A stretch of 64,000 nucleotides of DNA from Marsupella aquatica (lineage: Eukaryota > Plantae > Marchantiophyta): NCBI GenBank assembly GCA_973895155.1, contig OZ316897.1:23542318-23606317 (forward strand), read 5' to 3'. The notes below the pieces were generated by a model that was not told the DNA's origin, searched no databases, and saw nothing but the letters and a program-made list of their open reading frames with translations. Made by a program: the position numbers and the translations under genes. Shown here in pieces: positions 7,140-52,901 of this stretch (positions within the stretch are counted from its first letter, which is position 1; every line of letters starts with the position of its first letter).

Positions 7140-9012
7140 GAAACCCTATCGGCCAACTTTCAAGCTGACCTGCGTAAGAAGGACGACATGCTCAATCAAA
7201 CCTACAAGAAGATGAATAAGATAGAGTTTGATGCTGTCCACGAGCTTAACGCAGAGCTGAGAGCAACCCAGGAGGAGAGGGCGGTCTTACGGAAGGAGTT
7301 GGACTAAAATCAGGAGTTGGAGGAAGCTCGCGGGGATTTAGACGAGACCCAAGAGGAGTTGGAGGAAGCCACGCGGAAAATGGAGAACTTGCAGAGGCGG
7401 GCGGACAACCAAACAGAGCGGCTGAAGAAACTAGCCGAGGAGTTAAATTGGCAGGCTAGAATAAGTGGACCCCCAGTGGCGGCAACAAGGTTGCAGGGCG
7501 TGGTACTGACCGAACAACAAGCCGAGGCACCCTCACTTGTGCCGGAAGTAATTGGCAAGGGGAAGGCGCCGGCTGCCTGGGAAGGTAAGGACAAGAAGAA
7601 TCAAAAACCTTCCGGGTCAGGGAGCAGCACGGTTCCTCAGGCCACCATGACTGAGGTAGAAAGCATGGCACCGGCCTTATGCGAGGTAGTGGTTGTCAAG
7701 GTGGCAGTCTTGGAGGTAGGCCAAGAAGACCAGTTGGGTGAGGCCATGACGGGCACGGACTCAAGGTTGCCAATCATTGATCGGCATCAACTGCAACCTT
7801 GGGAAGACGAGACAACCCGACTCATAGGACAAGCCTATGAGGAGGACCACTGCGACAAGATGGCCAATGTTGGGATTGACAGTGCCAAAGCCGCAAGAGC
7901 GGACCCACCACTGTTACAAGCCAGGGGAACACAAGCCGTGGAAACAAAAGCCGAGGTAGGAGTGGGGCCCGGTCACACCAAGGATGGGTTGACCCAATCG
8001 GGAGCTGGTAACCTATCAGAGGACGAACCGACTACATTGGCCGCCAAGGAAGGATTGGGAGCGTCCATTGAGGGCCAGCCATCAGTGTCATGATGATGGA
8101 GAAGGGCTGTCCCTTTTAGGGAGGGCAAACATGGAGGTAGGAGGCGTGAGTGGGCAAAGCGAGTGCGGACCTCCAAATTTAGGATTAGGATCAGGAGCAA
8201 GAAGCGGCCCTGACACTTAGATTAGTGGGATTACGGATCCACTGGTAAGAGCAACACTTGTGCTCTTGCCCCGTTGTACATACTTAGGTAGATTACACTT
8301 AGAGGTAGATTAGGCTTACGTAGCAAGGAAATAGGTAGATGCGCTGCCAGGATAAATATGTGTGCAACGGGGACTTCAGGGCCTTCTTCTTAAGCAAGTT
8401 TTTAGTGCACCAACAAGGCTAAGATCAATTAGTAAGAGGAGCTCTCGGTTAGTTATGCAGTGACTCCTGTGTATATTAATGTTTCCTCGTGCCTAAGAGC
8501 TGAATAGTTTTGGTCTTCCGACTTAGTTCACAGATCTTGTGTACGAGAAGTACTCTTTGTATGGCAGTTGCACAATATAACTTAGTCAGTATGAGTCATC
8601 TTTCTAGTTGTGTGTCGCATTAACTTGTGTGAAGATTGCCCACATCAACTATAGGAGAGAAAAGAAGTAAGTTAAGTCATCAGGAGCAGGAAGAGTTGGA
8701 TGTGTTGAGCTGAGAGGAATCTTAGCGGCTACCCAAGCCAATTGGGCATCATTCCGGGGGCGGAATCCAAACATACATGAAGGGAGACCAATAGAAGAGA
8801 ATAAGGAGAGGCCTAGAGTAGGTCGGTTGCATATCTCATGACCCGATGAAGCATCTGTCCAATATATGTGGGTAAAAAGTTGGTAAAGAGTTTTAGTAGC
8901 GTCCCATGCCGATAAGCCACAGAACCAGCCTTGGCAAGAGCAAAACTGGTGGGAATCGGCTTGTTCAGGGCAAGTTCTTGGGTTTAGAGAGCCATCAATG
9001 GGACGCACCACA
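7140..9012 (+). mobile_element. 5'-truncated, degenerate copy of TG..CA element family A
   Basis: Colinear with about 23590-25366 (LEEARGDLDETQEELEEATRKMENLQRRADNQTERLKK), with the same right end gggacgcaccaca. It is inserted into the family B copy. Confidence 0.85.
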
Positions 9013-9891
9013 CGATGCATGGTTAATTTGGCCACTACGACAGTGGCCACAGGTAAGCCGGATACTGAAGCCGGCTTCTTCCACTTCCTACCCCAAGATT
9101 GGCTCCCGGGGTGACTCATGGAGGGGGACATCTCCCCATCTTCTCTATTTGGTGTCAATATTGCTATCGCTGTAAGTACTGGTGCCGGGGCTGCAACCGT
9201 CACTATGTTGCCTATCGGGGGTGCCCCTCGGATTTGGGATTGGGATGGTGGCGCAATACCCATAACAGGTTGTTAGGTACCTGGTGGGTTGTGGTGAAGG
9301 GAAGGGGCTTCCTCATCCTCTGAGCTGAGGTTGACCGCATTCACCACGGACCGCACATGAGTAGATGATGCAACCGATGGGGGAGAGCGGCTTGAGGGTG
9401 CTCGGGGTGGTGTCTTGCTTGTCCTGATGCGGGCGAGTTGGCCATGGGTGCTGCTGGAGGAGGTGCCATGGGGCCCGGTATTCTCGCGGGAAAGCCGAGT
9501 GATGCTGCAATTGATGAAGGTTCGCTTGGGTTCGGACTATCGCCAAACCAACAGTCCAAGAAGGACTGCACTCTGGCAAGGATGTCGTCAAAGTGATGAT
9601 GTTGTAAGTCCATTGTGCTAGGGATCCTGAAGACCTTGTCCGGGAGTCAGGGGAGCGCTTCTCCAAAGCCGAGGTACTTTGATCCCTCAAAGAAGAACTC
9701 AACGATCTCTTTGTCCCGACAGTACTTGCTCTTGAACGGAACATTAAAGGTCATTGTTGTAGTGAGAATGCCCGTTCAAACGGATAAGCCATTCGTAATG
9801 CCTTTCGGCTTTGTACTTGCGTGGGTTGTGCTCGGCGAGTGAGGTTGCAAGAGCCGTATTACTTATTACCAACCGTGTTGGCGGTGTCACA
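9013..9891 (-). mobile_element. Partial, degenerate copy of TG..CA element family B
   Basis: Translations match 43636-44490 (REDGEMSPS..GLPVATVVVAKLTMHR; MDLQHHHFD). The terminus ggcggtgtcaca matches the reverse complement of the 43100 end. Confidence 0.8.
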
Positions 9892-14600: not shown

Positions 14601-17462
14601 TTTTGTACGCTTGGGTCCCAGTATTGGGACCATGACTTTGCATCCAAATACCCGCAGGTGTGACAGGTCTGGAGGTAGTCCGAACGCTAAGTGGTGTGGA
14701 GTCTTTGTGTTGAACGCCGATGGTCTGTATTGAAGCAGTGTGGCAGCATGGAGGACTGCGTGTCCCCATGTGGATAGGGGTAACTTTGAATTCATTAACA
14801 GGGGTCTGGTTATCATCTGTATACGCTTGATAACGGATTCTGCCATTCCGTTTTGGAAATGGACATATGGGACTGAGTATTCAGTGTCAATGCCCGCTGC
14901 CCAGCAAAACTCATCGAATGCTTTTGAGGTGAATTCCCCTGCACCATCCACTCTCAGTTTCCGAATTGGATGTTCTGGGAATTGTGCTTTAAGCTTTAGA
15001 ATGTTGGCCAGTATCCTAGCGAAGACCAAGTTGCGTGTAGAGAGTAGAGATACTTGCAGCCATTTGGTCGAAGAGTCGATGATGGCCAGGAAATACTTAA
15101 ACGGTCCACTTGGTGGGTGGATCGGGCCGCATACATCTGCGTTCAGGTGTTCCAGGAAGTTCGGGATGGCATAGATTGTCTTCTGTATTTGTGGGCGTGT
15201 AATCAGCTTCCCCTGAGAGCACGCCAGGCATTGCCTTTGTTTTGTTGATGGGTTGACTCCTTGGGGGATTCCACGGGAGTCATGAATAATTCTGCGGTAC
15301 ATGTTTACTCCGGGGTGTCCCAGTCGACAGTGCCATAAGTATGTGATATCAGGTAAGTCTGCAGTGACATAGTGAGCTTGAATTTGAGTTGCGTAGAGGC
15401 CTGGTGGTATAAGGGGTAAGGTTTCTTTAATATGTATACCTTGTTCGGTAACCTCCACGATTTGGAGGGTATCTTCCTCGTCTATTTTCACTGTGCGCAG
15501 TTGATATTTATTTGCGACTATGTCTCGGAAGCTGATGAGGTTCCTTGTAGCTCGCGGGGCGAATATCGCTGCTTCGATGGCGAGTGCAGTGCCTCCTGGG
15601 AATATTACCGTGGCTGTGCCTTTACCCTCCTCAATCTGGTTTGTGCCTGAAATGGTGGTCATATGCCGGGCTGATGGGGTAATTGAGTGGAAATATTTCT
15701 TGTCCTTTAGTATTGTATGAGACGTACCGCTGTCAATTATGCCCAGATTGGGGTCTTGTAGTGTGTAGGGTCCTCTTGCTGGAGTTACTATGTGGGTCTC
15801 CACTTCATGAGGTTGTTCGGGGTCTTTGTAGGTGGCTATTGCTTCTTCTAGCTCCATGTAGTTCCCTGCTGGGTTTTGTTTGAGTCTAGCTCTTGATTCT
15901 GTATGTTTCCTGGCTATTTGGTCCGATGCCCAACAATTTTTCTTCAGGTGTCCTATTTTTCCGCATCGGTAGCACATCCTGTCATCTTTGGTGTTGTCCG
16001 ATGCATTATCACTCATCCTGCCTCTGCCGCCTACTCCCCTGCCTCTTGTGTTGTATGATTGTCGATATCCTCGACCTCTGTAGGATTGGTTTCTACCTCT
16101 GCCTTGGTATCCGCCTCTGCCTCTTGGTCGGCCTCGTCCCATGTTATCTCGCTGATAGTAATTTATCTCTGGTTTGTGTGGTGGTGGTTCTGTTCCCGCA
16201 GGTCTTTTTCGGGCGTTTTGCATGGCGACCACCTGTTGCTTCTCTTCTACAAGTAAATGTGCGATAAGATCTGAATATGTGGTGAATTGCATATTTCGGT
16301 ACTGTGTACCGAGTGCAATGTTTGATTCGGGGAATGTACTCAGTGTCTTGTCGATCTTATCTGCGTCTGGGACTGGATGGCCGCAGAGTTCTAGTTGAGA
16401 GGTAATTTTAAATAGAGCGCTGTTGTAGTTAGCAATGGAAGTATGATCCATCACTCGTAGGTTGTACCAATCGCGGCGAGCCTCAGGAAGCCATATTTCG
16501 CGCATATGGTCGAATCGGGCCTTTAACTTGTCCCACAGGAGTCGTGGATTGACTTCGTTCATGTATTGGGATTTTAGTGAGGGAACCAAGTGCTGGCGCA
16601 AAAGGAACACGGCCTTGGCCTTCTGTTGTAGAGTCAGATTTTGGTCTGTGATTAATGTATCTTCAAGCTCCAACGATGCGAAGTATGTTTCCGCATCTAC
16701 GGCCCATGTCAAGTAGTTGCTGCCGTCTACTAGTAGGGCTGGGAAATGTAACTTCTCCAATGTTGCCATGTCTATTTCGCCTGATTTTGGGCCTTATAAA
16801 TATATGGTGTTCCTTTGTATCAAATGCCTATGACTTTCGCCTTGTCCCGCCCGATCGATCGGCTGTTGTGATGGATCAAGTTAACCAAAAGAAAGAGAAA
16901 CGATAGCGATCCTTTCGCTCAAGGCACGGGACTCATCTGCCCCTTGAATCGCATCCAAATTGTCCCCGATGGAGTTCGTTCGTATGTCCTTGTGTGCGGT
17001 CCTCAAAGTTTTCAGTTTTCGCCAATGTCTTTTATTTTGTTTTTCGCGTCTCGTCGCGTTGTCTCCTTCGTTCAAGGTTGAGAATCTTCGCTCGTGATTA
17101 GGCTCGACGCTCTATGGCCAGTTCTTTGTTCTTCGATCATAAGCTTGTTTTCTCTATTCTCGGGAGGTAGTTAGGCGGTTATTCTCGCCATTAGAGCAAA
17201 AAACACACAACATTGTGTTGTTTTCTTTGTGTGGACCTCGATCTATTGAGTTGTCAGATTTTGGGGAGGGAGCACATGTAAAAAAAATGTAATTGAGCAA
17301 GTCGCGCTGATAACGTGTTATGAATACACAAGATGATAGTAGTCAATAATCCCCACTCACTTCCATTATGCCAAGGACTTATATAGTCCAGAAGGGTTAA
17401 CATGGTTGGGTTAATGTTAACCTATCCTATACTAGGGTTAAGTCATATTATGGGTTATAACA
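11671..17462 (-). mobile_element. Intact Ty1/Copia LTR retrotransposon, Bianca lineage
   Basis: Identical 147-bp LTRs (11671-11817, 17316-17462; TG..CA), TSD ATAAT, Bianca-type PBS CGTTATCAGCGCG and PPT AAGGGGAAG. Confidence 0.95.
12156..16769 (-). CDS. Copia Gag-Pol polyprotein (1537 aa)
   Basis: Uninterrupted ORF with Gag, zinc knuckle CYRCGKIGHLKKNC, protease IIDSGT, integrase (WHCRLGHP, DGAGEF, QNGMAE), RT YVDD and RNase H (GYADAGY, IYEDN, ADLFTK). Confidence 0.95.
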   Translation of the reverse strand: MATLEKLHFPALLVDGSNYLTWAVDAETYFASLELEDTLITDQNLTLQQKAKAVFLLRQHLVPSLKSQYMNEVNPRLLWDKLKARFDHMREIWLPEARRDWYNLRVMDHTSIANYNSALFKITSQLELCGHPVPDADKIDKTLSTFPESNIALGTQYRNMQFTTYSDLIAHLLVEEKQQVVAMQNARKRPAGTEPPPHKPEINYYQRDNMGRGRPRGRGGYQGRGRNQSYRGRGYRQSYNTRGRGVGGRGRMSDNASDNTKDDRMCYRCGKIGHLKKNCWASDQIARKHTESRARLKQNPAGNYMELEEAIATYKDPEQPHEVETHIVTPARGPYTLQDPNLGIIDSGTSHTILKDKKYFHSITPSARHMTTISGTNQIEEGKGTATVIFPGGTALAIEAAIFAPRATRNLISFRDIVANKYQLRTVKIDEEDTLQIVEVTEQGIHIKETLPLIPPGLYATQIQAHYVTADLPDITYLWHCRLGHPGVNMYRRIIHDSRGIPQGVNPSTKQRQCLACSQGKLITRPQIQKTIYAIPNFLEHLNADVCGPIHPPSGPFKYFLAIIDSSTKWLQVSLLSTRNLVFARILANILKLKAQFPEHPIRKLRVDGAGEFTSKAFDEFCWAAGIDTEYSVPYVHFQNGMAESVIKRIQMITRPLLMNSKLPLSTWGHAVLHAATLLQYRPSAFNTKTPHHLAFGLPPDLSHLRVFGCKVMVPILGPKRTKIGPQRQEGIYIGNDSSSIIRYLEPTTADVFKARHTDCHFYEDTFPTLSIDKQMTGDLHPHQINWNSRNLLNQDPRTKQTDAEVRRLLHLHEMLDKIPDAFNDAANVTKSHNEATNVPARVQMNTPPATVAAPKAKRGRPPGSHDTRPRQRRPHQVIPETTFHFINNESETPDISGNEEMSIQYKHTGQIYTRQNTTVDEQFAYHIAQEITNDTSDPLTIKEAQTRSDWPHWKEAIDTEMDALIHRQVFGPVKQVDPNNDYTDSRFTFIKKRNAKGDVIRYRARLVAKGYTQIPGRDYDLTYSPVMDVTTFRYLIAFSRKHQLCNILMDVVTAYLYGVLDSEIHMKAPKELLERVAEHIQGKQYPNLSKDMKSGIDQIIPNDDCKGLVLSSGNTQKAPLQYPGKRRTGQQAFAVQVLKSINGLKQSGRIWYQKFKTEIQALGFITEDIAPCIFIKRVDTEFVVLALYVDDINLFGTQRLLRQTINTMKGIFEMKELGEPTYCLGLQFDHLQTGTFISQSTYTNKILQQFNMQKAYPVSTPMELRSLDTAKDMFRQRQDNEPILDSDKPYLSAIGALLYLANNTRPDISFAVSLLARHSAHPTIRHWNGIKRVFRYLQGTIDMGLFFPNESEDELTGYADAGYLSDPQDSKSQTGYVFLQGKTAISWRSTKQSLTTTSSNHAEVIALYEACREAIWLRSIITHILKQTGKTLLTNPTTIYEDNRACVDQIVTGYMKTDRTKHIDPKFFFTHEHSGKQIQVKWISSQDNCADLFTKPLPATTHRKHVSAIGMHRLSSLTSSTNDNSRHEHTANAKSK

Positions 17463-20400: not shown

Positions 20401-20676
20401 AAGCATATCAGCATATAATTTGAAAAAGGGACAAGGATCCCTTCCTATTAGGATGATGAAGTTCAAGCATTACCTGTTGTTCACTCTCTGGTTCTGACCC
20501 TCCAATGTCACAATCCTCAGTGTCATACCCAGAAGGAGAACCATAGCCATCATCACCAGACTCTGCCATGTTCACCTTGGTCACTTCTGATAGTCTAGAG
20601 CTCCTCCTCTTTGGCAATGTTTCAGTTGAAGTACCTTTCACCAAAGCAGGCTTTCCTCTCTCTCGTTGTACATGTG

Positions 20677-23600
20677 TGTGATGCCTAGACAGGAATCACT
20701 CGGCCGGTTAAGTGGGTAAAGCAGGAAGGCACCCTAGGAACACCTTAGTATAGTGACAAAACAAGGAAAATATAAACAATTAGGGGCAACCATGGAACCC
20801 GGGCAGAGGCCGGAGGTAAGGCTGAGGGTGAAAACCCGATTAGGGTTAGGGCGCGTTAAGCGTCGGCGGCTAGGAAGGATCAACGGGAAGAAGGACCGGC
20901 AGAGGAGAGGGGTAAGGAGCGCTTGCAGGAGATGGTGGCTCATTTGCGAGCACGAACTAGGCAGACGACTACGGGAGGCCAACTACTGTCAGCTGCTTAG
21001 GCAAGCACTCGGGGAGAGAGTAGATACCGACGATCAACCTAAGGAGGGTATGAGCAACGTCAATCAAGCGGCACATTTCTGGGGATGCCTGTTCGAACGG
21101 GCAACTGAGTACATCAAGACTTACGAGGACGAGGAGTCAGAAAGGGCAGCTCGAGAACGGCAGGAGCTCGCTCGATTGTGGGAGCTGCAGAAGACGGCTT
21201 TCTTAGGAGGCGAACTCATCAAGGACGAGTTCCTGTGGACGCCTACTTCCAATCAACTCGACGATCTTCTGTTTTGCAAAGACAGCGTCGTCGGCATCCG
21301 AGAGGCCATCAAGAACTGCAACGACATACACTGGGAATTAAAGGGTAGCACGGAAAGGTGGACCCGGGCAACGGTGCTAGGAGAGACCTCCACGGCAGCA
21401 GAGATGAAGAGGAAGGGAGCCGTCAACGATGAAGCCACCCCGGCAAAAAGAACGAGGTCGGCGGCACCAAAGAAGCCAGCCGAGCAGCAGAGCAGGAGGC
21501 AGGGAGAAGCCGAAGAGGAGGAGGTCGATCCCATCAAGGCCATTCCAACCAGGGATGACACCTGGAAGGGCTGGGCGGCAACCCTACCGGTGGAGGTGCA
21601 ACTACATTTTGCACGGGAGGAGGATGCATGCTTTACGGCCATGCAGACCAAGAAGTACCAAGGCTTCATGGCCGGATCCGGCTTGGAGGCCTTTGTAAGA
21701 TTACCATGGCTGAAGCCGGAGGTACCGGAGTCAGACCTATTAGAATTCGTGGGGTCATGGGAACCCGAGACCAATTGCACGAGGATATATGGGAAGGATT
21801 TCTATCTTACTCCCAAGGTGATTGCCGAAGTGTTTGGCTTGCCGATGGGCAATAAGACCAAAGTTGATACCAGGAAGACCTTGCCTGACAAGGAGTTCCG
21901 GTCGTTCCCCGGGCCATCAACGAAGAATGGCTTCTTCCGGAACACCTGCACCAACCCGCACATAGGAGAGATGATCGACTTCTTGCGGGTGACCATGCAT
22001 TGTAACCTGCCGAGGGCAGAGATCGGCAAGGCACAGGTCTATCTGGCAGAAAGGCCAGACCCAAGCCGGGACTACAACGGGTACCTCCTCAACCAATTGA
22101 AGAAGATCTTAAAGGAGGAGCAGCAGGTAATCGGCATGGGGAGCGTGTCGCGGCTTGGCTATCACATGCCGCTGTTGTGCCGGTATGCCAGAGGTCAGAC
22201 TTTTGCCCCGGTACTTCCCCTGCAGGTAAGGGCACCCGAGGAAGCTCCAACGCCGAGGCCGTTGGCTGAGAAGCCTCAACCACCTGTTAGTCCTACGATC
22301 GAGCAGGTGTTTAGGCCCAGGAAGGAAGACTTGCCGATGCAGCAACCAGGCATGCAGAGTCTGCTGAAACTACTGGAGAAAGAAAAGAAATCGGCATCGA
22401 CAACAACAACAACAACGGCAACGGCAACAATGCAGGACACTACTACAGAGGTAGGCCTACACCGGCTCACAAGAGAAAACCCCTTTGCTGGAGACAAGGA
22501 GAGAATCAGGCCGGAATCCAAGCCAGGTGTTCGAATGTACGTGGGAACCTCAAGCTCCGAATCTGAGGCAGAATTGCCTGAAGCTCCTACCGAGGAAGAG
22601 GAGAGGGAGAAGCCGGAAATCCAAGAGGTAGAGGAGGCAGTGGAGGACTGCAGCCATGATAATTCCGGCTATGGGTCGGACCATTACGTTCCAGGAGTAA
22701 GGACCTGTGGCCGGTTTGTCCCCACACTTCCAAGGGTAGTGCGAGGGGACCCCAACCAGCAGAGTAGCCCTGAGTCTCCCCCACCAGATGTTGCTCCCCC
22801 GAGCTTCGACGGCATAAAACAGACAGTGCAGGAATTTCAGGAGCGAATCAAGCAAGAGGAAGAGGCCGCCCTGGCTAAGGAAAAGGATTTACCAGGAGGA
22901 GATTGGCCGGAGGACATCAGGCGGCTAGCCGAAAAAGGAAGCAAACCTCTAGCCACGATTGAAGAGATCCGCAGGACGGCTTGGGAGCAGAGGCCACGAT
23001 GGGCGATGCCGATCACTTCTACTTACTCCACCTACGCTAAGAATAGAGCCATGGAGTATGGTGAGATGTGTGGGGAACTTGCGCTCGGCATCTTTGGAGA
23101 GGAGTTGGAGGTAGGACCCTTTTTCCATAGGGAGCAGTTGGAGAAGCACCAATTAGAAGAAGCGGTGGCTTTAGAGAGAAGCAAGAAGGACGAGGTCATT
23201 CGGCGGCTTAGGAGGATGGAAGCCGAGATTGAAGATCTAAGGGCGGCCAAGAAAGCCCAAGATGAACTGCGGATTAAACGACATGAGCTGAACATCATGC
23301 AGGGGCAGTTGGACGCCGCGCAGGCTGATAATCAGAATATCAAGGATAAACTGACTCAGACGCAGGAAGAGTTGGCCGACACGATCAAAGAAAGGGAAAA
23401 GTGGAAGCAAGAGCTGAAGAATACAGAGGAGGCCCACATAACAGCCAACAGCCGGGCCATGGCAGAGACCCAAAGAAAGGAATGGGCGTTGAAAGGGGAG
23501 CTCGAGAAAATCCGCGGAGCCCTTGAGCAGAAGGAGGTCGAGTTAGGGAAATCCTATCAAGGGATTATGGCGCTGCAGCAGGAGCTTGCGTCCTTGACGG

Positions 23601-25366
23601 CCAGCTTTAAGGCCGACCTAAGGGAGAAGGACGAGATGCTCGAACAGACTTACGCCAAGATGAACCAGATGGAGTCTGTCATCATTGCAGAGCTCGACAA
23701 GGAGCTAAGAGCAACCCAGGAGGAGAAGGCTACCTTGAAGAAGGAATTGGAGGAAGCCCACAGGGAGCAGGAGGAGGCCAAAAACGAGCTGGAGGGGGCA
23801 CGTAAGGACCTGGATGAAACCCAAGAGGAGTTGGAGGAAATCACGAGGAAGATGGAGAACCTACAGCGGCGGGCCGACAACCAAACAGAGCGGCTGAAGA
23901 AACAAGCCGCAGTATTTAAATGCTTAGCTGCAACAGGTCCATCTCCCGTTGGGACAAACCAGTTACCAGGGGTGGTAATTGCCGAAGGACAAGCCGCGCC
24001 ACCTGCACCAGTGCCGGAAGTAAGTGGGAAGGGGAAGGGACCAGCTGCCGAGCCACCAACGAAGAAGAAGCGGAAACCTTCAGGGTCAAGGAGTAATACG
24101 ACTTCACAGGCCGTGGTGATCAAGGAGGTAGACCCAGCACCGACCCCAGACAGGGTCACGGCTAAGGATCCAACTACCCTAGGGGAAGGGGAAGCCGAAG
24201 CCGAGGGAGTGGCTGAAGCCGAAGCCGTGGGGTTGGCTGAAGCCGAAGCCGTGGGGGTGGCTGAGGCCGAAGCCGTGGGTATTGCCGAGGCCGGTGTCGA
24301 GGCTGAAGCCGAAGGTGGACCCAGTCAGGCCGATGGAGAGTTGACTCGGTCAAGGGCAGGTAATCTGTCAGTAGGCGGGCCAACGGCAGTGGCTGAGGAG
24401 GAAGTGTTGGGGGCGTCCATTGAGGATCCACCACCGGTGTCGTGACGGTGCAAGGGCGCCGTTCCTTTTAGGGAGGGCGGACGTGGAGGGAGGAGGCGTG
24501 AGTGGGCAGGGCGGGCACGGATCTCCACGTTTAGGATTAGGATCAGAACCAGGAGCGGCCCTGACACTTAGCTTAGTGGGATTGCGGTCCCACTGGTAGG
24601 AGCAACACTTGTGCTCCTGCCTTGCTGTACATAGGTAGATTCGGGTAAGTAGATTACTGTTAAGTAGATTAGGCTTACGATGCAAAGAATGGCGGATCCA
24701 CTACCAGGATAAGTACCTGGGCAGCGGGGAGCTCAGGGCCTCTTCTTTAGCAAGTTTTTAGTTTGCACCAGCCGGGCTGGGATCAAGTAGTACGAGAAGC
24801 TCTCGGTTAGTCATACAGTGACCCTTGTGTATATTCATGTTTCCTCATGCCTAAGAGCTGAATAGAGTTGGCCTCACGGCTTAGTTCGCAGAACTTGTGT
24901 ATGAGATGTACTGTTTGTATGGCAAGTGCATGGTATGACTCAGTCAGAATGAGTCATTTTGCTATTTGTGTGTCGCATTAACTTGTGTGAAGAGTGCCCA
25001 CATCAACAGAAGGAAGGAAAGTAAGCAGGGGAGTGAGAGTTGGATGTGTCGAGCTGAGAGAGGTCTTAGCGGCTTAACCAAGCCTATTGGGGATCATTCC
25101 GGCGGCGGAATCCAAACATACCTAACAAGACGGAGGGGAAGACAGGGGAAGACAGGGGAAGGCCTATATTAGGCCGGCTACGTATCTCATGACCCGATGA
25201 AGGATCTGTCCAGTATATGTGTGTAAAATGTTAATAGTAGTAGTAGAAGGTTAGCAGCGTCCCATGCCGCTAAGCCGCGGAAACGGCCTCGCCAAGCACG
25301 AAACCTGCGGGAATCGGCTTGAGCTGGGGGGTTTCTTGGGTTTAGGGAGCCATGGGACGCACCACA
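20677..25366 (+). mobile_element. 4690-bp TG..CA single-ORF element (family A; solo-LTR-like)
   Basis: Ends TGTGATGC..GCACCACA with 5-bp TSD ATGTG (20672-20676 and 25367-25371). No internal terminal direct repeats, RT or integrase. Confidence 0.88.
20753..24445 (+). CDS. Family A protein: plant-transposon-protein/PMD-like domain, acidic/Pro-rich linker, long coiled coil, KKKRK motif (likely start ATG 21050, about 1131 aa)
   Basis: Open for 1230 codons. Contains the motif GLEAFVRLPW..LLEFVGSW..RIYGKDFYLTPKVIAEVFGLP. TATAAA lies at 20771, and MSNVNQAAHFW loosely parallels the family B N-terminus. Confidence 0.8.
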   Translation: MTKQGKYKQLGATMEPGQRPEVRLRVKTRLGLGRVKRRRLGRINGKKDRQRRGVRSACRRWWLICEHELGRRLREANYCQLLRQALGERVDTDDQPKEGMSNVNQAAHFWGCLFERATEYIKTYEDEESERAARERQELARLWELQKTAFLGGELIKDEFLWTPTSNQLDDLLFCKDSVVGIREAIKNCNDIHWELKGSTERWTRATVLGETSTAAEMKRKGAVNDEATPAKRTRSAAPKKPAEQQSRRQGEAEEEEVDPIKAIPTRDDTWKGWAATLPVEVQLHFAREEDACFTAMQTKKYQGFMAGSGLEAFVRLPWLKPEVPESDLLEFVGSWEPETNCTRIYGKDFYLTPKVIAEVFGLPMGNKTKVDTRKTLPDKEFRSFPGPSTKNGFFRNTCTNPHIGEMIDFLRVTMHCNLPRAEIGKAQVYLAERPDPSRDYNGYLLNQLKKILKEEQQVIGMGSVSRLGYHMPLLCRYARGQTFAPVLPLQVRAPEEAPTPRPLAEKPQPPVSPTIEQVFRPRKEDLPMQQPGMQSLLKLLEKEKKSASTTTTTTATATMQDTTTEVGLHRLTRENPFAGDKERIRPESKPGVRMYVGTSSSESEAELPEAPTEEEEREKPEIQEVEEAVEDCSHDNSGYGSDHYVPGVRTCGRFVPTLPRVVRGDPNQQSSPESPPPDVAPPSFDGIKQTVQEFQERIKQEEEAALAKEKDLPGGDWPEDIRRLAEKGSKPLATIEEIRRTAWEQRPRWAMPITSTYSTYAKNRAMEYGEMCGELALGIFGEELEVGPFFHREQLEKHQLEEAVALERSKKDEVIRRLRRMEAEIEDLRAAKKAQDELRIKRHELNIMQGQLDAAQADNQNIKDKLTQTQEELADTIKEREKWKQELKNTEEAHITANSRAMAETQRKEWALKGELEKIRGALEQKEVELGKSYQGIMALQQELASLTASFKADLREKDEMLEQTYAKMNQMESVIIAELDKELRATQEEKATLKKELEEAHREQEEAKNELEGARKDLDETQEELEEITRKMENLQRRADNQTERLKKQAAVFKCLAATGPSPVGTNQLPGVVIAEGQAAPPAPVPEVSGKGKGPAAEPPTKKKRKPSGSRSNTTSQAVVIKEVDPAPTPDRVTAKDPTTLGEGEAEAEGVAEAEAVGLAEAEAVGVAEAEAVGIAEAGVEAEAEGGPSQADGELTRSRAGNLSVGGPTAVAEEEVLGASIEDPPPVS

Positions 25367-25811
25367 ATGTGTGGTTGGGCCTCTAAGGAACAATTAAAGC
25401 AATCATCAACATACACCAATGCAGATCAAACATACATGCAAAATGAATCTACAACACCGTAACACTAGTACTTATGTACAGGATCCATACTAGTATGAGA
25501 CCAATCTGGAATATAAAAACATAAAAGGAACCTGACAACTCCATCTACTGAATCAAATTTGCAACAGACATATTAACACACACATCAGCTTGCAGTCTGG
25601 CCCCAGTCCTAGATCACGCATAATTCTGACATTATGCTCTATGTTCCGATTTCGGGCCTCCTCATAAGGATTCACAGAATGTGACAACCCCTGCAATCTT
25701 CCTTTCACAGGCTGCATTCACCAACTGCACAAATGGGTAAACCATTAGTCTGATTTCATATATAGTCCATACATGTAGTCCATCTATGGACTTCACACAC
25801 CTAAAACCTAT

Positions 25812-29772: not shown

Positions 29773-30356
29773 GCTAGCTTGATTGAAATTGTATTCAAAC
29801 TATGATTTTCAAACTGAATCAGTGTGACATGCATACAAAATTGGGCCTACCGTCACAGTTGTACAACCGATGCCAACCACAGTCCAATTGCTCAAACCCA
29901 CAGAGCCCAATTTCTCAAATCCACTGTAGTGGGGCACCGTCTCCTTCTTGCATACAAATAGAGCATCACATACAGTGTCATCAGAATGATACTATGAACG
30001 TAAATCTCTGTGCCTTCATCATTTCCAGTATTTGTTTGCCTATTAGGAATGTGAGCAGACAGGTCTAGAATAAGTAACGTTTGTGACATCAGTGACAAAT
30101 TTACAAGTGAAGTTTAGACATCACACTCAAAGCACATGCATGAAAATCGGAATCCTACCCTGGAAAAGATAGTAAAGTTGATTTCTCAAAATTAATTGCC
30201 TCAATCCGCAATGCACTGTCGTAGAGTGTGTATACATGAGGAGTTCATCAAACTGCATATAAATAGTTCACATGTTTTAGCACTCTGAAAATTGTTTAAG
30301 TCCACGTGAAACCATCAAAAAGCTCTATCTCAAGTTTGTGTTCCATCCAGCCTCAA

Positions 30357-30953
30357 TCAAATCCAAGATATGTGGCTCCTAGCAGGAGTGCCTAGTGTAG
30401 GGTCAATGTCATGGTCAGGACAGTAAAACATCCCCTTCTTGGGCTGCCCATGCGCTGAGTGATCCCAAATTGTTCGATCATGGGCAAATCCCCTCTGCTG
30501 GATAAACAACAGGCAGTCCTTGTGCCATGCCTTAGGACACCTCATGCACTGAACCAAAAAGCCATTAGCCCCATCATTGGGCCCCTGTCCACAAGTAAGA
30601 CAAATATGGAGTCCACATGATGCTATGCCAGGAACCAAACACTGCCGACAGTAAAACCGGGCACAGAGAGGGTCTGGACATTTTCTTACCTCTTCACCAA
30701 TTTTTCCAGACACATGGCACTTAAAGCAAGAATGTTCATCATTCTTGCAATCAACACAAAGCCATTCTCCAACATGGCCATCAGCCAGGGATATAGTTGG
30801 GCATAGCCATTGCTGTCCCAAAGGACAGGAAACATTCTTATGGAAATGTCGGTGGCAAGGCCCATCACAAACAATGAGATCCCCTCCCTCATCACAAATC
30901 GCACATACATGTGGACTATTTTGGTTAATCTCAATGTCTGAATATAAGGCCAA
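30357..30953 (-). CDS. EDM2-like composite PHD-finger protein inside the CACTA (start codon uncertain)
   Basis: VCAICDEGGDLIVCDGPCHRHFH..WLCVDCKNDEHSCFKC..KCPDPLCARFYC..HICLTC..QCMRCPKAWHKDC..YCPDHDIDPTLGTPARSHI follows the EDM2/NSD PHD cassette, including the YC..H.ID..LGTP.R.HI tail. Confidence 0.78.
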   Translation of the reverse strand: MALYSDIEINQNSPHVCAICDEGGDLIVCDGPCHRHFHKNVSCPLGQQWLCPTISLADGHVGEWLCVDCKNDEHSCFKCHVSGKIGEEVRKCPDPLCARFYCRQCLVPGIASCGLHICLTCGQGPNDGANGFLVQCMRCPKAWHKDCLLFIQQRGFAHDRTIWDHSAHGQPKKGMFYCPDHDIDPTLGTPARSHISWI

Positions 30954-33900
30954 TTGAGGTGCTTGAGAGATTCACCTCTGCAACGATTCATGGCCTTCTG
31001 CTTATTGCGAGCCATGGTCCTGCACACTCAGACCCTACATCAGATTGTGAAACAAGAAGGAATAACAGGGTGCAACATGACACAAAAGAATGAGGGTGCA
31101 ACATAAAATATGACATGTAACCACAAGGGAGCAGCATAAACCAATGCTTTATGGATGGCAAAGCACTAGGACTGAGCAACGCAAATAACCTTGGCCTATG
31201 ATTGGAAGCAATCACAAATATTGCAACCTGTATGCCTTCGCCTGCTGTCCAGCAGTGCTCACTCACCCTGCCTTTTTTAAATCTGTAAGGGCAACACAGA
31301 ACAAATAGCAATTGAGTTTCAGCAAAGCATTGGTTCTCAAGTTTTAAAATGGACAGACTTGTTTCATTGTCTGCCTTGTGCGCAGCAGGCTAGGACCGAT
31401 CAGGGCAAATAATTTATATATTCAAGTAGTGAGAGCTACAAAATTTGCTGGGACAGTTTTCTAGTTCTGGATCCTGCTACGCTTTATATACAGCAGCAAC
31501 CTGAATTCGATTTTTATAGACCAGCTTTTCACCACGGCTACGACTTCAAAACAATCACACAATGAAATCATGTAGAGGCATGAAGTAAACATGGGTCAAG
31601 GCTGTGAATAAAGTTCTCACCTTGTCCCTGCATAGCATCGGGAAATTCTACCCAGAGTCTAAAGCGGGAGATACCCAGGCGATGATCCATCCCAAGTTGC
31701 GTCAGGTCTAGGAAGGTTAGTACTCTCCTAATGTGACAAGACTTCTTCTGGATCATTCTCTGTAACAAAATTTATTTGTTTGAAGTAAACGACTGAAATC
31801 ATTTGATGGCAAATTCTCCATTTGGACTCTGTGGACAGTGGGGTATAATTTTGTAAGACATTCATTGCCAAACTCCATGAACTTACTAGTAGATTCTATG
31901 TTCAATTAGACAGCATTAAACAGACCAGCCTTCCACTCAGACAGAAACAATCCTGGCCCACTCAAGCATTAAACAGGGTCGATCTTGTCCTTCCCGTGTA
32001 CGCCTCAATGCTTATTGTATGTCATTCTAACAACATTCTTCATTTGTTTACTCAAAGGATTCTACTATTGGACGAGAGCATCACGAAAGGAGCAGATATA
32101 AGTAAAGTTGGTGGTAGCTGATGATGAATGATCGACTGATGTTATAATCCAAGGCAATGACAAAAAAATCGATCGTCTCCGACGAGAATTGGGTCTCATG
32201 GAAAAGGGCATGGTTTATGTGAAGGGACTATTAGAAAAATAGGTTCTCATAATTTTGGTGACAAGTTCAGGCAGAAGGTGGCTTTTAGAATTATAGATTT
32301 ATCCACTTCAACTTATGCACACCATATGAGAGGGGACGACTATCTAAGGTTGTGCAGAACTCCTGCCAAGGACATGAGCACATTTTTGTTCAATTTGGCG
32401 TTGGAACTCAAGCAGTACCATTCAGAGGGAAAATGACAATCAAACAATTGATAGGGACTGTCGGAAATCAACAGCAGACAGAATGGAAAACTCGGAAGAA
32501 CTGGTGCAACCTCGAGCAGTCACAGAGAGAGCTCTAGAGAGGGACCGAGAGGTTGAGGTAATAGTCTCGTGGCAATCGAAGGGTTCGGAACCTAACATAG
32601 CAGACACAAAAAATGTATGCTAAGCAGGAGGAGAAACAGAGCAATAGAGCAACATAGCAAGAAGGCAGGGGTAGCATGGCAAAAGGAAAGAGTAAATTGA
32701 AACTATGAAACATAGCCAGATTGAAGGGGAAGAAGCGCACAACCTCTTGCAGCTCCCGTTTCTCTTCCCGTAGCTCCTGATGTAACCTCCCGTAGCTCCC
32801 GCAACACGCTGACGAACGGTGAGACCTCCTGCAGCTCTTCCCGCAGATCCTGCCTGCTGTCACCTCCCGAAGCTCCACCAATGTGACCTCCCGCAACTCC
32901 ACCACTCCTCTGTAGCTTAGTTATCCCCAATCATAGCTTGCAGCTCCTTCCCAATGAACCCTTACTAAACTACTCCTCGCAGCCGAGCTTGCAGCTTATG
33001 ACCCGCAGGTTATCACCAATCATAGCTCGTCGCCCTTCGCTGAGGTAGCCTCCCGCAGCTCCTTCGTAATGTATTGTCCCAAGTCTCCTCCTCACCCACT
33101 GGTTATCATCGATCGCACGTCGTCGCCCTTTGCAGCTTTCTGAGACATATAGCTCCAACGTTAACGCCAAATGCTCCGCAATGTTGCGCGACACTGCAAC
33201 AATGGATTGGAGCTCTTCCGTGGTAGTAGCTCCCAAGTCCTACCGGCTCACCCTAAGCTTTCCTACTCCCCTGACCGCGCGCAGCACCCTGATACAGTTT
33301 GTGGGAAGAAACGGAGTGCGCACTCCACAAAGCTGTCTCAACTCGCAACTGAACTCAAATGCGCCCCGCACTCCATGCACATTGCCCACCGCCACATTCC
33401 TTTGATGAAAACGCGCACCTCAACTACAAAAACCCTACATTTCACAACTTGTGCTCGACTCGACATTTGCCGTTGTGCACCTCCAATGTAGATTTGTCGA
33501 CCACTTATGTTCCGAGGGCCTACTACAAGAACGCGGGAATTGGAGCACGATGTTGATTGTATGATCCAGGGTGTGATCTCAGCCGTTGGCACTTGTGTAG
33601 GTGCCAAAAATCTAATACCTCTCCACTAGGTTGGACAATTTAATACCTCTCCACTAGGTTATAAACTTAATACCTCTCCATTATTGGTTTGCAAAAAACC
33701 CAATGAAGGTTATGGTATATCCAATTTAAAGAGAGCCCTAAAGGTCATGGCTGTTTGTGTAGGTGCCAACAAGAATGTTAAGGACGCATGTTATATGTAA
33801 AAAATGATGCCTGCAATATAAAAGGTCCTTTTGGACCAAGGGAAAACCTTGGTTTTCTAACTTGGTGCTCTAGAGTTATGGCTAAAAATCACATTGACCC

Positions 33901-43099: not shown

Positions 43100-46000
43100 T
43101 GTGACGCTGCCGGTACGGCGGTTAATGAGTGATTCGGTCTAACTGCGCTCGGCATGCACGTTAGGAGTGTCTTAGGCCGCTATTATTAGCATAACGACAG
43201 TATTTAGGTAATCATTATGGGTAGGATATCATTAGGCAATAAGGGGGAATTCAGGTTCGGACTGGCGGCTGGTCGCTATTCGCACACCCAGGTTACGAGC
43301 ATGGAGGGGCCCCTCCCTCGGGTCCGTATAACAAACTTACGGAAGCGGCCACTGACACGCGCTGACTCAGACCGGCGGAGTGGCCGGCACACCACAAGCG
43401 TGAGCGGTTCAGCCTATGGGCGTCGAGGAGACGTTGGGGGATCGACAAGCCCTCAAGGTATAAAAGGGGAGCCAACCCTTTGTAGTGCACCAGTCCATCA
43501 GTCCACGCGCCAGCTTCGACCCTAGCTCTCTCGTTCGCTCTAAGTCGCCACTACTATCTCCTCTGAATGTCGCACACGATCCTCTCCAGCTCGGCCATTT
43601 GATTTTGGACGCAGTTCCTATCTACCGGAAGGCACTTGGCCGACTCATTGAAACACGCCAACCCACGCCGATACGAAATCGAACGCGAGTACGAGAGAGC
43701 CATCCGCCTAGCAGGACGACACCACTACATCCTTAACTTTGACTACCCGTCTCAGAGCGAGCTTTATCGACCAGCAGAGATATCCGGGTACTTCTTCAAT
43801 GGAGACAAATATATCGGGTTCTGGGAAGCATTGCTTCGGCTTCTGGACGAGGTCTTCAATATCCCGGGTATGATCGACTTGCAACGACATCACTTTGACC
43901 ACATCCCTGCTCAGGTTCGGGCTATCATCAACAGCGAGTCCAGCACTACCCGTTCGACAAGGTCATCTGCACTCGCTTCGGAAAACTTCTACCAGCACCT
44001 ATAGAGCTTCATAGGAACTCGGCCAGCAACCAACATGACCAACTCAGTTGTACCCGTACCCGTACCTATACAACCTCAGGCTCAGCTTCAGCTTCAGCCT
44101 CAGCCGCGGCCTAGCCAAACCCCACCACCGATCGCCCAGCCAGCACAAGTACGCTCCGTCATCAACGCTGTGGATCTTAGCGATGATGACGAGGCTACCC
44201 TACCCTTGACCAGGCGGCCCAGAGGAACAAGCGCTCAGGGGGCCGACACTATATCGTCCCCACCCCCTGCTCTGACCCCAGGAGCAGCCCCGGCAGACAA
44301 CATGGTGACCGTGGCCGACCCGGGCCCGTTAATAACGGCAGTGGCACTACCCAGGCCCGATCGGGAGGATGGGGAGGTGTCACCTTCCCCGAGCCAGTCA
44401 CGGGGGAAGAAGAGGAAGGAATCCGCCACTGCATCCGGGTTACCGTTGGCCACGGTAGCCGTGGCCAAGGTGACGATGCACCGCATGGGGGAAAACGTTC
44501 ACAAAAACATCCTCCATCACAAGCATGCGGTGTACCTGAAGACTCAGGGATTCGAGCACCTCGCCTCCCTCCCCTGGAACACTTGCAGGTACTACGGGGA
44601 GGACATGACGGAGTTTGTCAGGAATTATGACGACGCGCATCAACATATTCGGCTGCGGGGAAGGAGTATGTCCCTCACGGAAGAACGGCTCAGGATGATC
44701 TTCGGGTTACCCGAAGGTGACCATCGAGTTGAATCACGGGCTCCCGAGGGCAAGGGAGCCAAGTACCAATCTTCAAGTTTTCCCTCAGAGGGAGCAGTGG
44801 ACAACGGGTTCGTGATGAAGACCTGCCTCATCCCCGAGATAGCTGAGCGACTGGAGTTCTAGAGGTACGCCCTCCACATGATGGAACCCCGGGGGGAGAT
44901 CTTCGCCGCCCAGGTTATCCAGGTCGAGAACTATCGACCTAGGAGGTGGGCGTCGTACTTCGCTAAGAAATTCCATGAAGAGATGGAGCGGCGAAGGAAG
45001 ACGCTGTACATTGGCGGGAAGGCGTATTTCGCTAGCCACATCGAGATCATTCTTGAGTGGTACGCCCGGTTTGATCGACGAAGTCTTCCCCGTGTCAACG
45101 TTACAAAGCTGGTCCTAGCTAGGTGGGTTTTCCCGGCCTTGGAGAGACGGCCACAACCCGAGGCCCGAAGTCCAGCGGACACGCCAGCTTCACCCACCCC
45201 ACCTCCATAAGTAGTTGTAGTCGTAACCGAAGAGGTACCGGATGGGTTGGTTGTCGCAACCGTTGATGCGACCCAACAAGCCGGGCTAAGTACAGAAGTC
45301 GGTACGACGGAGGTCTTACCAGAGCCAGGGTCTCCCAAAGACCCACCGGTGGCTATTCCGGAGAACCGGACATTGCTGCAGGAGGACACTCCAGCCCCTT
45401 CCAACGTTACGTCCCCAAGGCTGGACGTCATTGCCCCGGCCCCCGCGCGTGTTGATGTCTGCCCGTGCCCAACTCTGGACAGGCACAACCTGGACCACCC
45501 GGAACTCTTTGTACCGGGTACATTTCTGAACGGGCTTCTGGGAGATTTCTCTCATCAAATTGCCCAGGATACCGGGGAGTTCATGGCCCGGAAGGTAGCC
45601 TGTTTCTTCAATCAGGAGTTGGTTGCCGCAATAAAGGCAGGTCGGGCCCAGTCAGAGGCCCTTCAGAGGATAGAGTGGTACCGGGTGGAGTCAGTGTACC
45701 TAAAGAACGAAGTTGCGGCTCAAGAGGCTGAGCTTCTGCAACTACGACCCAAGGTTGCAGCCGCCGATGAGTTGTTAGCAAAGGCGCACGCTCTTACCGC
45801 CCTAGCCGAACAGGCCAAAGCTGGGAACGAGGCCGAGATTACACGACTCCGGAACCAGATTGATAGTTTGAAGAATCAAACTGTCACTTGGCAGAAAGAC
45901 CTGGAGGAGGCCGAGGAACGGGCCCAACGGGACACGGCGGAGATAGCCATGCTGCAGGCCGAGGTGGTGCGGCTCCAAACCGAGGCCGAGAAGCAGGACC

Positions 46001-47100
46001 AGCTAGCGGGTAAACTGACAAGTGACGCCTAGCAGCTGGAGGAGGCTTGTCAGGAGGCAGCAGAGGAGACGGATGCGGCGAGGCGAGAGAACGAATCTCT
46101 GCTGGACCAGGTCCAGCTCCTCAAGGCGGACAATGACAGGCTTCGAAGGCAGCGGGATGGCCGCTCCCATTCGGGCGGCTCTAGCAAGCGTGCCAGGCAT
46201 TAGCAGCGGAGTAGGAATAGATTAGGATTAGGACTGGCTTAGTCAGGCTCTTGGGACAGGCACCTGCCTTAGGTATAGCAGCGCTGCCGTGCTGTCCAGC
46301 CTGCGTAGATTAGGATTTTCTAATAAGACACAGCCGTTTTCCGGCCTGACTGTCAGCTTAGTTAGGACCTTAGTCAGCGAATCTTCGGCGAGAGGACACC
46401 CCGTCCCTCGTCCCTTAGTATTTAGTGCACCACTCGGAAGAGGCAGGGGGGGTTTTTAGTTGCAAAGTTGGGCGTCCGCGGTATGTGCGGGGAGTCCCGA
46501 CCTCTGGGAATGAAAGAGTACCAAGGGGAGGGGGTAGGACTAAGCTCGCCGGGCGAGTGCGGAGCCGGGCTCCGTTGTAGTGTGCACCCTCGGCCTTGAA
46601 CCTGTTCATTCCGGGGCTGTCGGGTCAACTAAGTGTACGCATATGTTCCCTTTGTAGTAAAATCCTTTCCCATCATTTTCCTTCGTGTAAATCGAGATTG
46701 TATGCATGTGCGCGTGTATGTGTGTGGGTTTCTCGTATATGGGTGGCAGCGCCAGGCCGAACGCACTACCCGAGACGTGCACAAGGTGCAGCCTGCGGGT
46801 AAGTGGTTGCGAGCACGGGTTGAGGACCTGTATCATCGAATCCGGATCGAAGGCGGACCGCACGAAGGCTTAGAAGCCCTTAAGCCGGGGTCGATCCTGC
46901 TATCGACTAAGGTACATTCCGGCGGCGGAACACAAACCATACCTAGGAGGTGTCCGTATTTAGCAGTATGCGCACTTAGCGCTAGTTTATGAGAATAAGG
47001 TGCATTACGTGCTTCCCTTCCTGCCCGAACCCTCAGATTTACGAGGGATGTGCCCGTCTAAGCTGAAGTCTGAGTTAAGGCCGCAGCCGATGACATGACA
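43100..47100 (+). mobile_element. 4001-bp TG..CA single-ORF element (family B; solo-LTR-like)
   Basis: Ends TGTGACG..CATGACA with TSD GATAT (43095-43099 and 47101-47105). Removing it restores the host gag frame. Confidence 0.9.
43567..46203 (+). pseudogene. Family B protein (about 878 codons) broken by five in-frame stops
   Basis: ORFs at 43636, 44035, 44878 and 45247 share one frame with ATG 43567. TATAAAA lies at about 43459. Contains GFEHLASLPW..EFVRNY..RLRGRSMSLTEERLRMIFGLP, a coiled coil and a SKRARH end. Confidence 0.8.
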
Positions 47101-49394: not shown

Positions 49395-50371
49395 CTACAA
49401 CAGCTGAGTTAGCCGAGGTGAAAGATGGCCATGTGGCACAAATTCTCCAGATGGAGTACAAGGCCACGCAGCTGAGGGATGAGTTCTTGGAAACTGCAGC
49501 CGAAGTAGAGACCGCACAAGCAAGCGTTGCGGAATTGGAGGAGCAGGTGGCAATCTTGCAGAGGGATCGTGACCGTTACAAGGAACGGGCACGATGTGCG
49601 TCTGGCTATGAGAGCTCGGCAAAACGGTCCCGCAATAGGGGGTAGTGGGAGGGGCCCACAATTTTTGTTAGGTTAGAACTAGATAAGTAATGTAGGAATT
49701 AAAACGGAGTAGTTAGAAGTACAAAAATAATATATATATATATAGGGAATCCCTTGGTAGGAGGTGGGGGGGATCCTGATTGTCAAAGCATTAGTGTTAT
49801 TATAGTGAAGTAAGGAGTCTCACATGGAGGAGCCAAGTGTACTAAGGAGTACACTCTAGCTTAGTGAATCTTGTAGGGCAAGTACGAAGCCGGGCTTCGT
49901 TAAAGCTTAGGGTCTACTGCCATTAGGCATTGTCTCTTTCGAGTTCATCAAGTCAACTATAAGTGTAAGGCTATGCTTGGCTGTAAGGAATTTTCCCCCA
50001 TCAATCCAAGAGTTACTCAGTATTACCAGGAGTTGAGGTATATGTGTATGTGAATGAGAAAGTATACGGGCAAGGATTGGAGACTGGAAGGATTAGTCGC
50101 ATGGACTGCTAGGGGTAAGTCATGGTTTAGTAGCTATCCGGGACCAAGCTTAGCCATGAGTGTATACGATGAAGCATAGAAGACCTTAGGCTGGGCCGGT
50201 GTAATACATTGGTTGAGGTATATTCTGGTGGCGGAATAGAAAATATACCTATGTTGATAAATGTATGTTTGAGAAAGAAGTAGTAAAGTAGTTTGCGGGA
50301 ATGATTCATGATTTTGTTCAATCTTTGTGTAGATATAGGTCCATCCTAACACTATGTAGACATCCTTGACA
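49395..50371 (+). mobile_element. 3' remnant of a third TG..CA family (C)
   Basis: Coiled-coil ORF ending SAKRSRNRG, a decayed shared motif at about 50222, and a probable end CCTTGACA. The left boundary is unknown. Confidence 0.5.
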
Positions 50372-51130
50372 CTAAGGTGCTAGAGAAGGTGCTTTGGCCC
50401 TTTGGGTCTGTTTATCTCTATGTCCACAACTGGTCTTTGTGTTGTGGTGGTGGTTAGAATATATTGGGTGCATTGTCACTCTTGTTTAAAGATTACATAT
50501 AGAAAACACAATGCATAGAAACTAGAGTTAGTTGCCATTGTAGTTAGAAGTCTTGGAAGGTATATATCATTTGGGGTTTTAATTTGGAGATTTTATAATG
50601 ACAACATACTCCTCAAATAATATATCATGTCAATTTATTTGGATATAGTTTTGTTTCATTGGTAAGGAAAAGAACACCCTTTGAGGCCAAAGATTAGGGT
50701 GGGCTTGGTTATATGGGCACTAGGTAAGGCTGCACTGAAGCTAGTGGGTGATGACTGATGATCAAGCAAGAGGCTAGATTGAAGATAGTCAAGCTCAAGT
50801 AGAGTGTGCAATCAAAATAGCCACCCACAAAGAAGCTATACTTAAGAGCAAGCTTAAGTTGATAGGAGACCTGAGCTAAAATAAGCCCCCTTATCTAACG
50901 TCAGATTATATATTGTGCATCTGGGAAAATAATGCCAAAGTAGCAAAGGCAGACCACTGCACATGGTTGAGCATATTGGGTTCTCACATCATTGTATGCT
51001 GTGGTCATTCTTTGCTATTTAGGAAGGAAAAAATGCAATTATTGTCATTCAATAATGTACATATTTATGACATGCATTTGTTATTATTGCATTGTTCTCC
51101 ACGTTGCACACCTACCCAATATTGGAAGTA

Positions 51131-52746: not shown

Positions 52747-52901
52747 AACTCAATTATTGCTCAGGTCATAAAACACTATTACAGTCAAGACAAAATCACT
52801 ATGGGCTACCAAAATACGAATCCCATAACACTTTGATTTATTTTTTTGGACTGTAACACTTTGACACGCTCTATTCATCCTTTTGGATTGCTCTACGCTA
52901 A

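Follow-up and report, generated by a model that had tools for sequence, protein, structure and literature searches.

The 64,000-nucleotide stretch of the liverwort Marsupella aquatica analysed here (the window; contig OZ316897.1, positions 23,542,318 to 23,606,317, forward strand; positions below are those of the window) harbours two complete units that begin with TG and end with CA, elements A and B, each occupied for the most part by one large gene. We consider it likely that both are solo long terminal repeats (LTRs) of an Athila/Tat-like Gypsy element with a gene inside the LTR, which encodes a predicted VANC-like DNA-binding protein. The two units and their parts are as follows.

20677..25366, forward strand: element A, a complete TG..CA unit of 4690 bp, interpreted as a solo LTR and delimited by its ends, the ATGTG duplication, an empty site and a depth step at both ends
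20672..20676 (left) and 25367-25371 (right), forward strand: target-site duplication ATGTG, from the ends and the empty site
20771..20776, forward strand: TATA-like box of the gene of A (putative promoter), from sequence
21050..24445, forward strand: gene of A, 1131 amino acids from the homology-supported start, 72% of A
24446..25366, forward strand: 3′ non-coding region of A, 921 bases, TTAGG-rich, from sequence
24848..24878, forward strand: stretch complementary to 20972-21003, possible 5′–3′ pairing (score 35, reached by 0 of 200 shuffles)
25096..25123, forward strand: 3′-end motif common to A, B and the partial copies A′ and C, from a motif search of the window
43100..47100, forward strand: element B, a complete 4001-bp TG..CA unit with a GATAT duplication within a Gypsy gag frame, from its ends and Pfam
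43567..46203, forward strand: gene of B, with the same three-part layout as the gene of A, five in-frame stops and a TATA-like box at 43459

Ends, genes and partial copies of the two units

Element A starts with TGTGATGCC and ends with CACCACA, while B, which interrupts the gag frame, runs from TGTGACG to CATGACA. At the tips of both, 5–7 bases pair within the first 7–9, and both are flanked by perfect 5-bp duplications. The empty site of A, with a single copy of ATGTG, is present in contigs of sequencing runs X2 and X3. The TG..CA ends, the 5-bp duplications and the empty site identify A and B as insertions by a retroviral-type integrase. An earlier note, made from the sequence alone, had described these ends with the ATGTG and GATAT duplications and short imperfect inverted termini, and had seen neither reverse transcriptase nor integrase nor an LTR pair inside either unit, all of which is borne out. 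No Pfam family exceeds the cut-off in A or B, be it reverse transcriptase, integrase or gag, and local alignment of the first 600 against the last 1000 bases revealed no terminal direct repeats: the best end-against-end score of A (19) was matched or exceeded in 197 of 200 shuffles and that of B (22) in 75.

Ends of the TG..CA type would also suit non-autonomous DNA transposons that are moved by a Ginger-like integrase-type transposase and carry an accessory gene as VANDALs do. Ginger elements, however, possess inverted repeats of 40-270 bp and mostly 4-bp duplications (PMC2836005), whereas in A and B only 5–7 of the first 7–9 bases pair, and we regard this origin as very improbable.

The frame of A is open from 20792. 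A profile of the N-terminal domain, built without A, aligns from Met87 of A (E 8e-8), which makes 21050 the probable start of the gene, 279 bases 3′ of the TATA-like box at 20771. The single large open reading frame (ORF) per unit described in the earlier note thus stands for A, at 1131 amino acids and with its probable start at 21050 instead of 20792, whereas the frame of B contains five stops, at which its protein was read with X. The TATA-like boxes upstream and the roughly 900 non-coding bases 3′ of each gene (921 in A) were recognized correctly. In the two units, the gene takes up about 66–72% of the length and encodes ~880–1130 amino acids. Although A and B are not similar over any long stretch of DNA, their proteins have a common layout of N-terminal domain, central domain and coiled coil.

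The non-coding parts have features of their own. A′, A, B and C each contain one copy of a 28–29-base motif near the 3′ end, which makes four in the window versus none in 100 shuffles; a metagenome scan with this motif yielded four loci, none of them similar to the window. Among the 5-mers of the non-coding sequence of A, B and C, TTAGG ranks first (23 occurrences in 3384 bases versus 7.1 in shuffles, the maximum in 1000 shuffles being 16), and is a candidate either for the target of the protein or for a host telobox. The complementary 5′–3′ stretch of A has no counterpart in B. The ratio of observed to expected CpG is 0.69 in A and 0.87 in B, versus 0.24 in CACTA genes of the window and 0.45 in the gag interrupted by B, which fits youth or low methylation of both units.

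As the earlier note had also stated, partial copies accompany the complete units:

7140..9012, forward strand: A′, a diverged A-type copy represented by its 3′ part and inserted into B′
9013..9891, reverse strand: B′, 5′ part of a B-type copy without most of the promoter region, adjoining Copia integrase remnants
49395..50371, forward strand: C, 3′ part of a third family, comprising the coiled-coil end and the 3′ region

A′ is 77% identical to A over 1086 bases, and is cut off on its 5′ side by an inverted repeat of ~200 bp (6933-7135; 78% self-complementary). B′ shows the B-type start TGTGACA twice at its 5′ end (9880-9910), 12 bases apart, perhaps reflecting one copy inserted just inside another. 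The proposed 3′ end of C lacks support from any target duplication.

The encoded protein and its predicted fold

The protein of A comprises three parts:

21050..21385, forward strand: N-terminal helical domain, common to A, B and Calypogeia proteins (profile without A, E 8e-8)
21572..22213, forward strand: central domain, modelled as a VANC21-like DNA-binding fold (65 homologues, predicted local distance difference test (pLDDT) 90, Z 9.0, Foldseek probability 0.91)
23160..23900, forward strand: long coiled-coil region with approximate limits, from sequence; coiled-coil Pfam matches lie below threshold

The gene inside the element is under purifying selection. Between A and A′, the ratio of nonsynonymous to synonymous rates is 0.15 for 95 codons of the coiled coil and 0.24 for a set of 129 codons. 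Moreover, 14 of 27 coding variants in the contigs are synonymous against 8.2 expected (P 0.015), with no stops, these 27 being among 40 variants listed while 753 more exist.

The central domains of A and B are 26% identical (tblastx E 6e-15). A search of 1.84 billion proteins with a profile of the two sequences retrieved 65 relatives (E 0.001). Twenty of these were looked up, of which 12 belong to Calypogeia, one to Riccia and seven are unnamed; the named sources, both of them liverworts, are Calypogeia fissa and Riccia sorocarpa. Two Calypogeia gene copies that are nearly identical and separated by ten accessions were not taken as an LTR pair, because the accession order suggests that they are inverted. 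A word-index search with residues 250-500 of A produced no match in 605 candidates, and a search of longer proteins gave three Riccia matches in 4402 candidates, none with gag or pol domains, which is weak evidence on fusion.

In gene models of R. sorocarpa (proteins P0082-P0098), the central domain is often fused to a PIF/Harbinger DDE_Tnp_4 domain. This fusion places the central domain in DNA transposons as well and suggests a VANC-like accessory gene in liverwort DNA transposons. It is also the second point on which a Ginger-like origin of A and B could draw.

The predicted fold of the central domain (pLDDT 90, from 35 sequences) was compared with 48,161 chains. VANC21 bound to DNA stood out with Z 9.0, at a root-mean-square deviation (rmsd) of 4.0 over 207 of 214 residues, the next match having Z 2.2. 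The top Foldseek match, which is not independent of this comparison, was also VANC21 (probability 0.91, template modelling score 0.51, E 0.078). A VANC21-type fold is accordingly what the model predicts for this domain, at a sequence identity of 8–10%. Weak leads from domain searches tend in this direction: one of 39 homologues matched DUF1985 and two matched Transposase_32, in each case below the cut-off, and Atlas leads for the protein were Transposase_32 and ATHILA, with scores under 0.9. Neither DUF1985 nor DUF287 was matched by Pfam in the proteins of A or B, a PDB sequence search returned coiled-coil and designed-protein matches only, and a viral fold library contained nothing at E 0.001. 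The N-terminal domain reached a best Z of 6.7 among many helical bundles and had no clear fold match.

Copies, flanks and the primer-site question

Sequence of A is present in part in 14 of the 16 sequencing runs listed, with at least half of its words in six, under four organism labels. Contigs of five of these runs were aligned to A, and the copy evidence accordingly covers A. The alignments comprise 15,599 contigs in run X1 and 27,117 in X2, and depth changes abruptly at the ends of the element. Across 20677, the summed depth in X1, which is not a copy number, rises from 62 to ~260,000; one run may be the window's own source. Thus, A is a multi-copy unit with fixed ends, and the conservation of ends across copies that the earlier note had implied is observed.

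Among 15 of 112 joints, we found joints from 25366 to internal positions and from internal positions to 20677, which reveal copies of A nested in other copies of A. A joint from 25366 directly to 20677 was absent among the same 15. Such a joint would be expected from a very short internal region. It bears on the possibility that A and B are the LTRs of a giant non-autonomous element resembling terminal-repeat retrotransposons in miniature (TRIM) or large retrotransposon derivatives (LARD), with a non-coding internal region and moved by a Gypsy partner. We deem this quite improbable, even though two observations made at the right ends and given below, namely the loss of agreement between flanks after ~15–20 bases and the absence of a Pfam match in the DNA past the primer-like motif of C, would suit it; the DNA behind C is old and may carry deletions.

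The flank data consist of one majority line per end, pooled from contigs that run past the end, and are not single sequences. Small flank sets (2-5 contigs) agree to the extent that simulation predicts for sequences that are all different. In the largest set, the right flanks of X2 (n = 41), agreement is 0.37 against a random mean of 0.337 and a 97.5% limit of 0.354, which in simulation is compatible with ~4–7 of the 41 having one common sequence. Most copies of A therefore sit in unrelated flanks, as solo LTRs do.

The right-flank lines of X2, X3 and X6, which bear three organism labels, are alike: a model of one shared sequence gives P 0.002 for the full 30 columns. With simple pair counts, P is 0.02-0.08 for 30 columns and 0.0005-0.006 for columns 1–18, a span picked post hoc, and agreement between the lines fades beyond ~15–20 bases. 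As reference motif for a primer site we used what we take to be the plant tRNA-Asn primer site, a sequence that no tool confirmed. The three lines match this assumed site at 12, 9 and 8 of 17 positions, respectively, in each case at an offset of 4 behind CA, which no other offset equals. The log likelihood ratio for the site is 14-15, a value reached by none of 20,000 random TGG-17-mers; allowing for ~60 tRNA types, P stays below about 0.003.

The 3′ ends in the window were scored after the motif had been fixed. Behind C lies the following feature:

50375..50384, forward strand: AGGTGCTAGA, matching the assumed tRNA-Asn primer site at 8 of 10 positions, 3 bases past the proposed end of C

Only 0.26% of window positions score as well, and the best scores behind A, A′ and B are 5, 4 and 5 of 10. 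This runs counter to the assertion of the earlier note that every terminus abuts unrelated DNA. On the other side, the left-flank lines at 20677 are rich in G 5–16 bases 5′ of TG, with 14 G versus 6.0 expected in three runs and 16 versus 8.3 in four (P 0.007). This test excluded two lines at 20675 and three single divergent contigs, in the latter of which there is no purine tract.

The primer-like right flanks, the purine-rich left flanks and the decayed motif behind C favour gene-carrying LTRs over a new integrase-mobilised class. We hold it quite probable that A and B are LTRs, whether or not the parent has gag-pol, and an Athila/Tat-like parent is likely. Of the two options in the earlier note, the coding solo LTR has thereby gained support, while the independent class has become less likely.

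As no pair of LTRs enclosing gag-pol was readable, this independent class keeps a small probability. It would consist of non-autonomous units with short att-like ends that move whole, without ever forming LTR pairs, by means of a reverse transcriptase and an integrase supplied by another retrotransposon. Both complete copies in the window are indeed single and flanked by duplications, most contig flanks differ, the parent was not found, and the possible 5′–3′ pairing in A would also suit such units. Nevertheless, these units have no internal repeat, primer site or purine tract from which both ends could be regenerated, and the primer-like motif follows C as well as a minority of 3′ ends, making such units improbable. 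A Ginger-like origin has no place for the primer-like and purine-rich flank signals.

Several points weigh against gene-carrying solo LTRs. The primer evidence comes from pooled majority lines, for which the number of sharing contigs and an alphabetical tie rule had to be assumed. The GG of the primer TGG is in no line (C,C twice and A,C once), at a cost of ~2 log units, and the assumed tRNA-Asn end was not found in papers, supplements, or prokaryote and viral collections. The purine-rich left flanks could stem from nesting in GA-rich copies of A. No gag remnant and no Pfam match were found within 2.5 kb behind C, and no LTR pair was seen, nor any gag-pol in linkage with A, B or C, the contigs being too short to show pairing around an internal region. 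As regards the protein, the VANC21 match has an identity of 8–10%, an rmsd of 4.0 and a Foldseek E of 0.078, a common fold alone demonstrates no function, and TTAGG resembles the host telomere box too.

Further scans were negative. The complement of the shared flank core, as self-priming would require, is not present in A within 2 mismatches. A viral-collection scan for the end plus the primer motif hit two loci, both chance matches, and scans of viral and prokaryote collections for related loci gave no confirmed match. No tRNA gene was found within the 64-kb window.

The surroundings are plant-type DNA, with TTTAGGG arrays, remnants of Copia, Gypsy and CACTA elements, and one pentatricopeptide repeat (PPR) gene; A itself is flanked on both sides by CACTA remnants. 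An intact Copia element on the reverse strand (11671-17462), with identical 147-bp LTRs, an ATAAT duplication and an open polyprotein of 1537 amino acids, is a very recent insertion. Remnants of an NSD-type PHD-finger gene (reverse strand) and a CCB1 fragment (forward strand) at 29800-34500, adjoining CACTA transposase genes, are possible captured host fragments. Direct repeats of ~160 bp, 96% identical, surround an 18-bp tandem array (51727-52099) at 51128-52746 and possibly constitute a small non-autonomous element. From 52900 to 64000 extends a higher-order satellite, in which arrays of a 121-bp GC-rich unit alternate with short TTTAGGG blocks, the repeats being 97–99.6% identical.

Gene-carrying repeats among known systems

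Read as gene-carrying solo LTRs, A and B are a new arrangement of a known kind of element, not a new class. According to passages of PMC6317226, Athila, TatII and Retand elements have mostly 5-bp duplications, non-chromovirus LTRs measure up to ~5 kb, and a tRNA-Asn primer is used by 12% of Athila, 15% of TatII and 4% of Retand elements. Like the Athila/Tat/Ogre/Retand group, A and B have 5-bp duplications, fall within this range of LTR sizes and encode an accessory protein with a coiled coil and an Athila-ORF1/Transposase_32-like domain, the latter from leads only; the minority use of tRNA-Asn in the group may be set beside the primer-like motif found here. As in Grande gene23, the gene would have its own promoter, judging from the TATA-like box. 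Unlike in these elements, the whole gene stands between TG and CA, whereas their extra ORFs, assigned to the internal region in sections of PMC7264820 and PMC6317226, are for the most part situated 3′ of pol, ahead of the 3′ LTR, and disappear when a solo LTR arises. No polyprotein linked to A or B was found for placement in the OTA clade.

Coding sequence inside LTRs has precedents. In mouse mammary tumour virus (sag) and human immunodeficiency virus (nef), the U3 region encodes ~200–320 amino acids, expressed from spliced or upstream-started RNA; here, the gene encodes ~880–1130 amino acids, accounts for 66–72% of the repeat and has a TATA box of its own. TRIM/LARD and Ginger elements resemble A and B in their TG..CA ends and in the lack of enzymes in the unit. 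A and B differ in that they have no terminal direct repeats within the unit and no inverted repeats of 40-270 bp, and in that they carry a large selected gene. In literature searches, with most subscription journals outside their scope, no publication described an entire gene inside a plant LTR, and none listed dealt with this layout as judged by title or opening of the abstract.

As for the protein, extracts of PMC5735166 and PMC10398659 describe VANC proteins as carrying DUF1985, binding to a short motif repeated in the non-coding DNA of their own element and causing demethylation there. With VANC21 of Arabidopsis VANDAL21 (PDB 9lnj/9lnk; PMC5735166, in part), our protein shares the predicted central fold, the coiled coil and a short repeated non-coding motif, and differs in its carrier (a probable retrotransposon LTR of a bryophyte), its intronless gene, its extra N-terminal domain and an identity of 8–10%. 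Unlike VANDALs, which are Mutator-like DNA transposons, A and B have a 5-bp duplication, TG..CA ends and no transposase.

The full element would read, on the strand of the gene, LTR, tRNA-Asn-type primer site, internal region, polypurine tract and LTR, and would be copied by reverse transcription. A sense extra ORF with its promoter may have entered the LTR, most simply if U3 grew longer when the plus-strand priming site moved; we favour a location in U3, as a captured 3′ extra ORF, over one in R-U5. The 921 non-coding bases of A would then contain the terminator and presumably the genomic promoter, R and U5. Recombination between two such LTRs of 4-5 kb would leave a single LTR in which the promoter, the gene and the 3′ region are all preserved.

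The protein itself would oligomerize via its coiled coil and bind short motifs of its own LTR, those of the TTAGG type being candidates. By analogy, it may counter silencing as VANC does for VANDAL transposons. To these proposals taken together we give nearly, yet not quite, an even chance. The protein could instead be a chromatin tether of particles or integration complexes, or a regulator of the MAIN/plant-mobile-domain type; this is rather unlikely overall, and somewhat below even if the LTR reading is granted. In its favour, VANC is structurally related to the silencing factor MAIN, as a part of PMC13547354 has it, the identity to VANC21 is only 8–10%, and A nests in copies of A and in other transposons. 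Against it stand an arrangement resembling that of VANC, with a globular domain, a variable linker and a coiled coil, and the short motif repeated in the element's own non-coding parts.

Solo-LTR formation is the chief route by which plants delete retrotransposons, and it normally strips all element genes. A gene inside the LTR outlasts this process, in many copies. Greater LTR length promotes unequal recombination, according to a passage of PMC7251063. We tentatively propose, as a reading on the unlikely side, that bryophyte retrotransposons brought a sequence-specific anti-silencing gene into the LTR, which turns each solo LTR produced by host recombination into a self-contained counter-defence cassette that recognizes motifs of its own family and keeps the family active in trans. 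Such units are liable to be missed or annotated as host genes, and many are unnamed proteins of C. fissa. The function of plant extra ORFs is described as a standing open question in a part of PMC7264820, and the predicted VANC21-like fold makes it directly testable. In the portion of PMC13547354 that concerns them, VANC proteins are called dicot-specific and related to MAIN and, like an Athila domain, are modelled as coiled-coil oligomers. If the cassette proposal is true, the VANC fold would be an old accessory module common to retrotransposons and DNA transposons, far outside the dicots.

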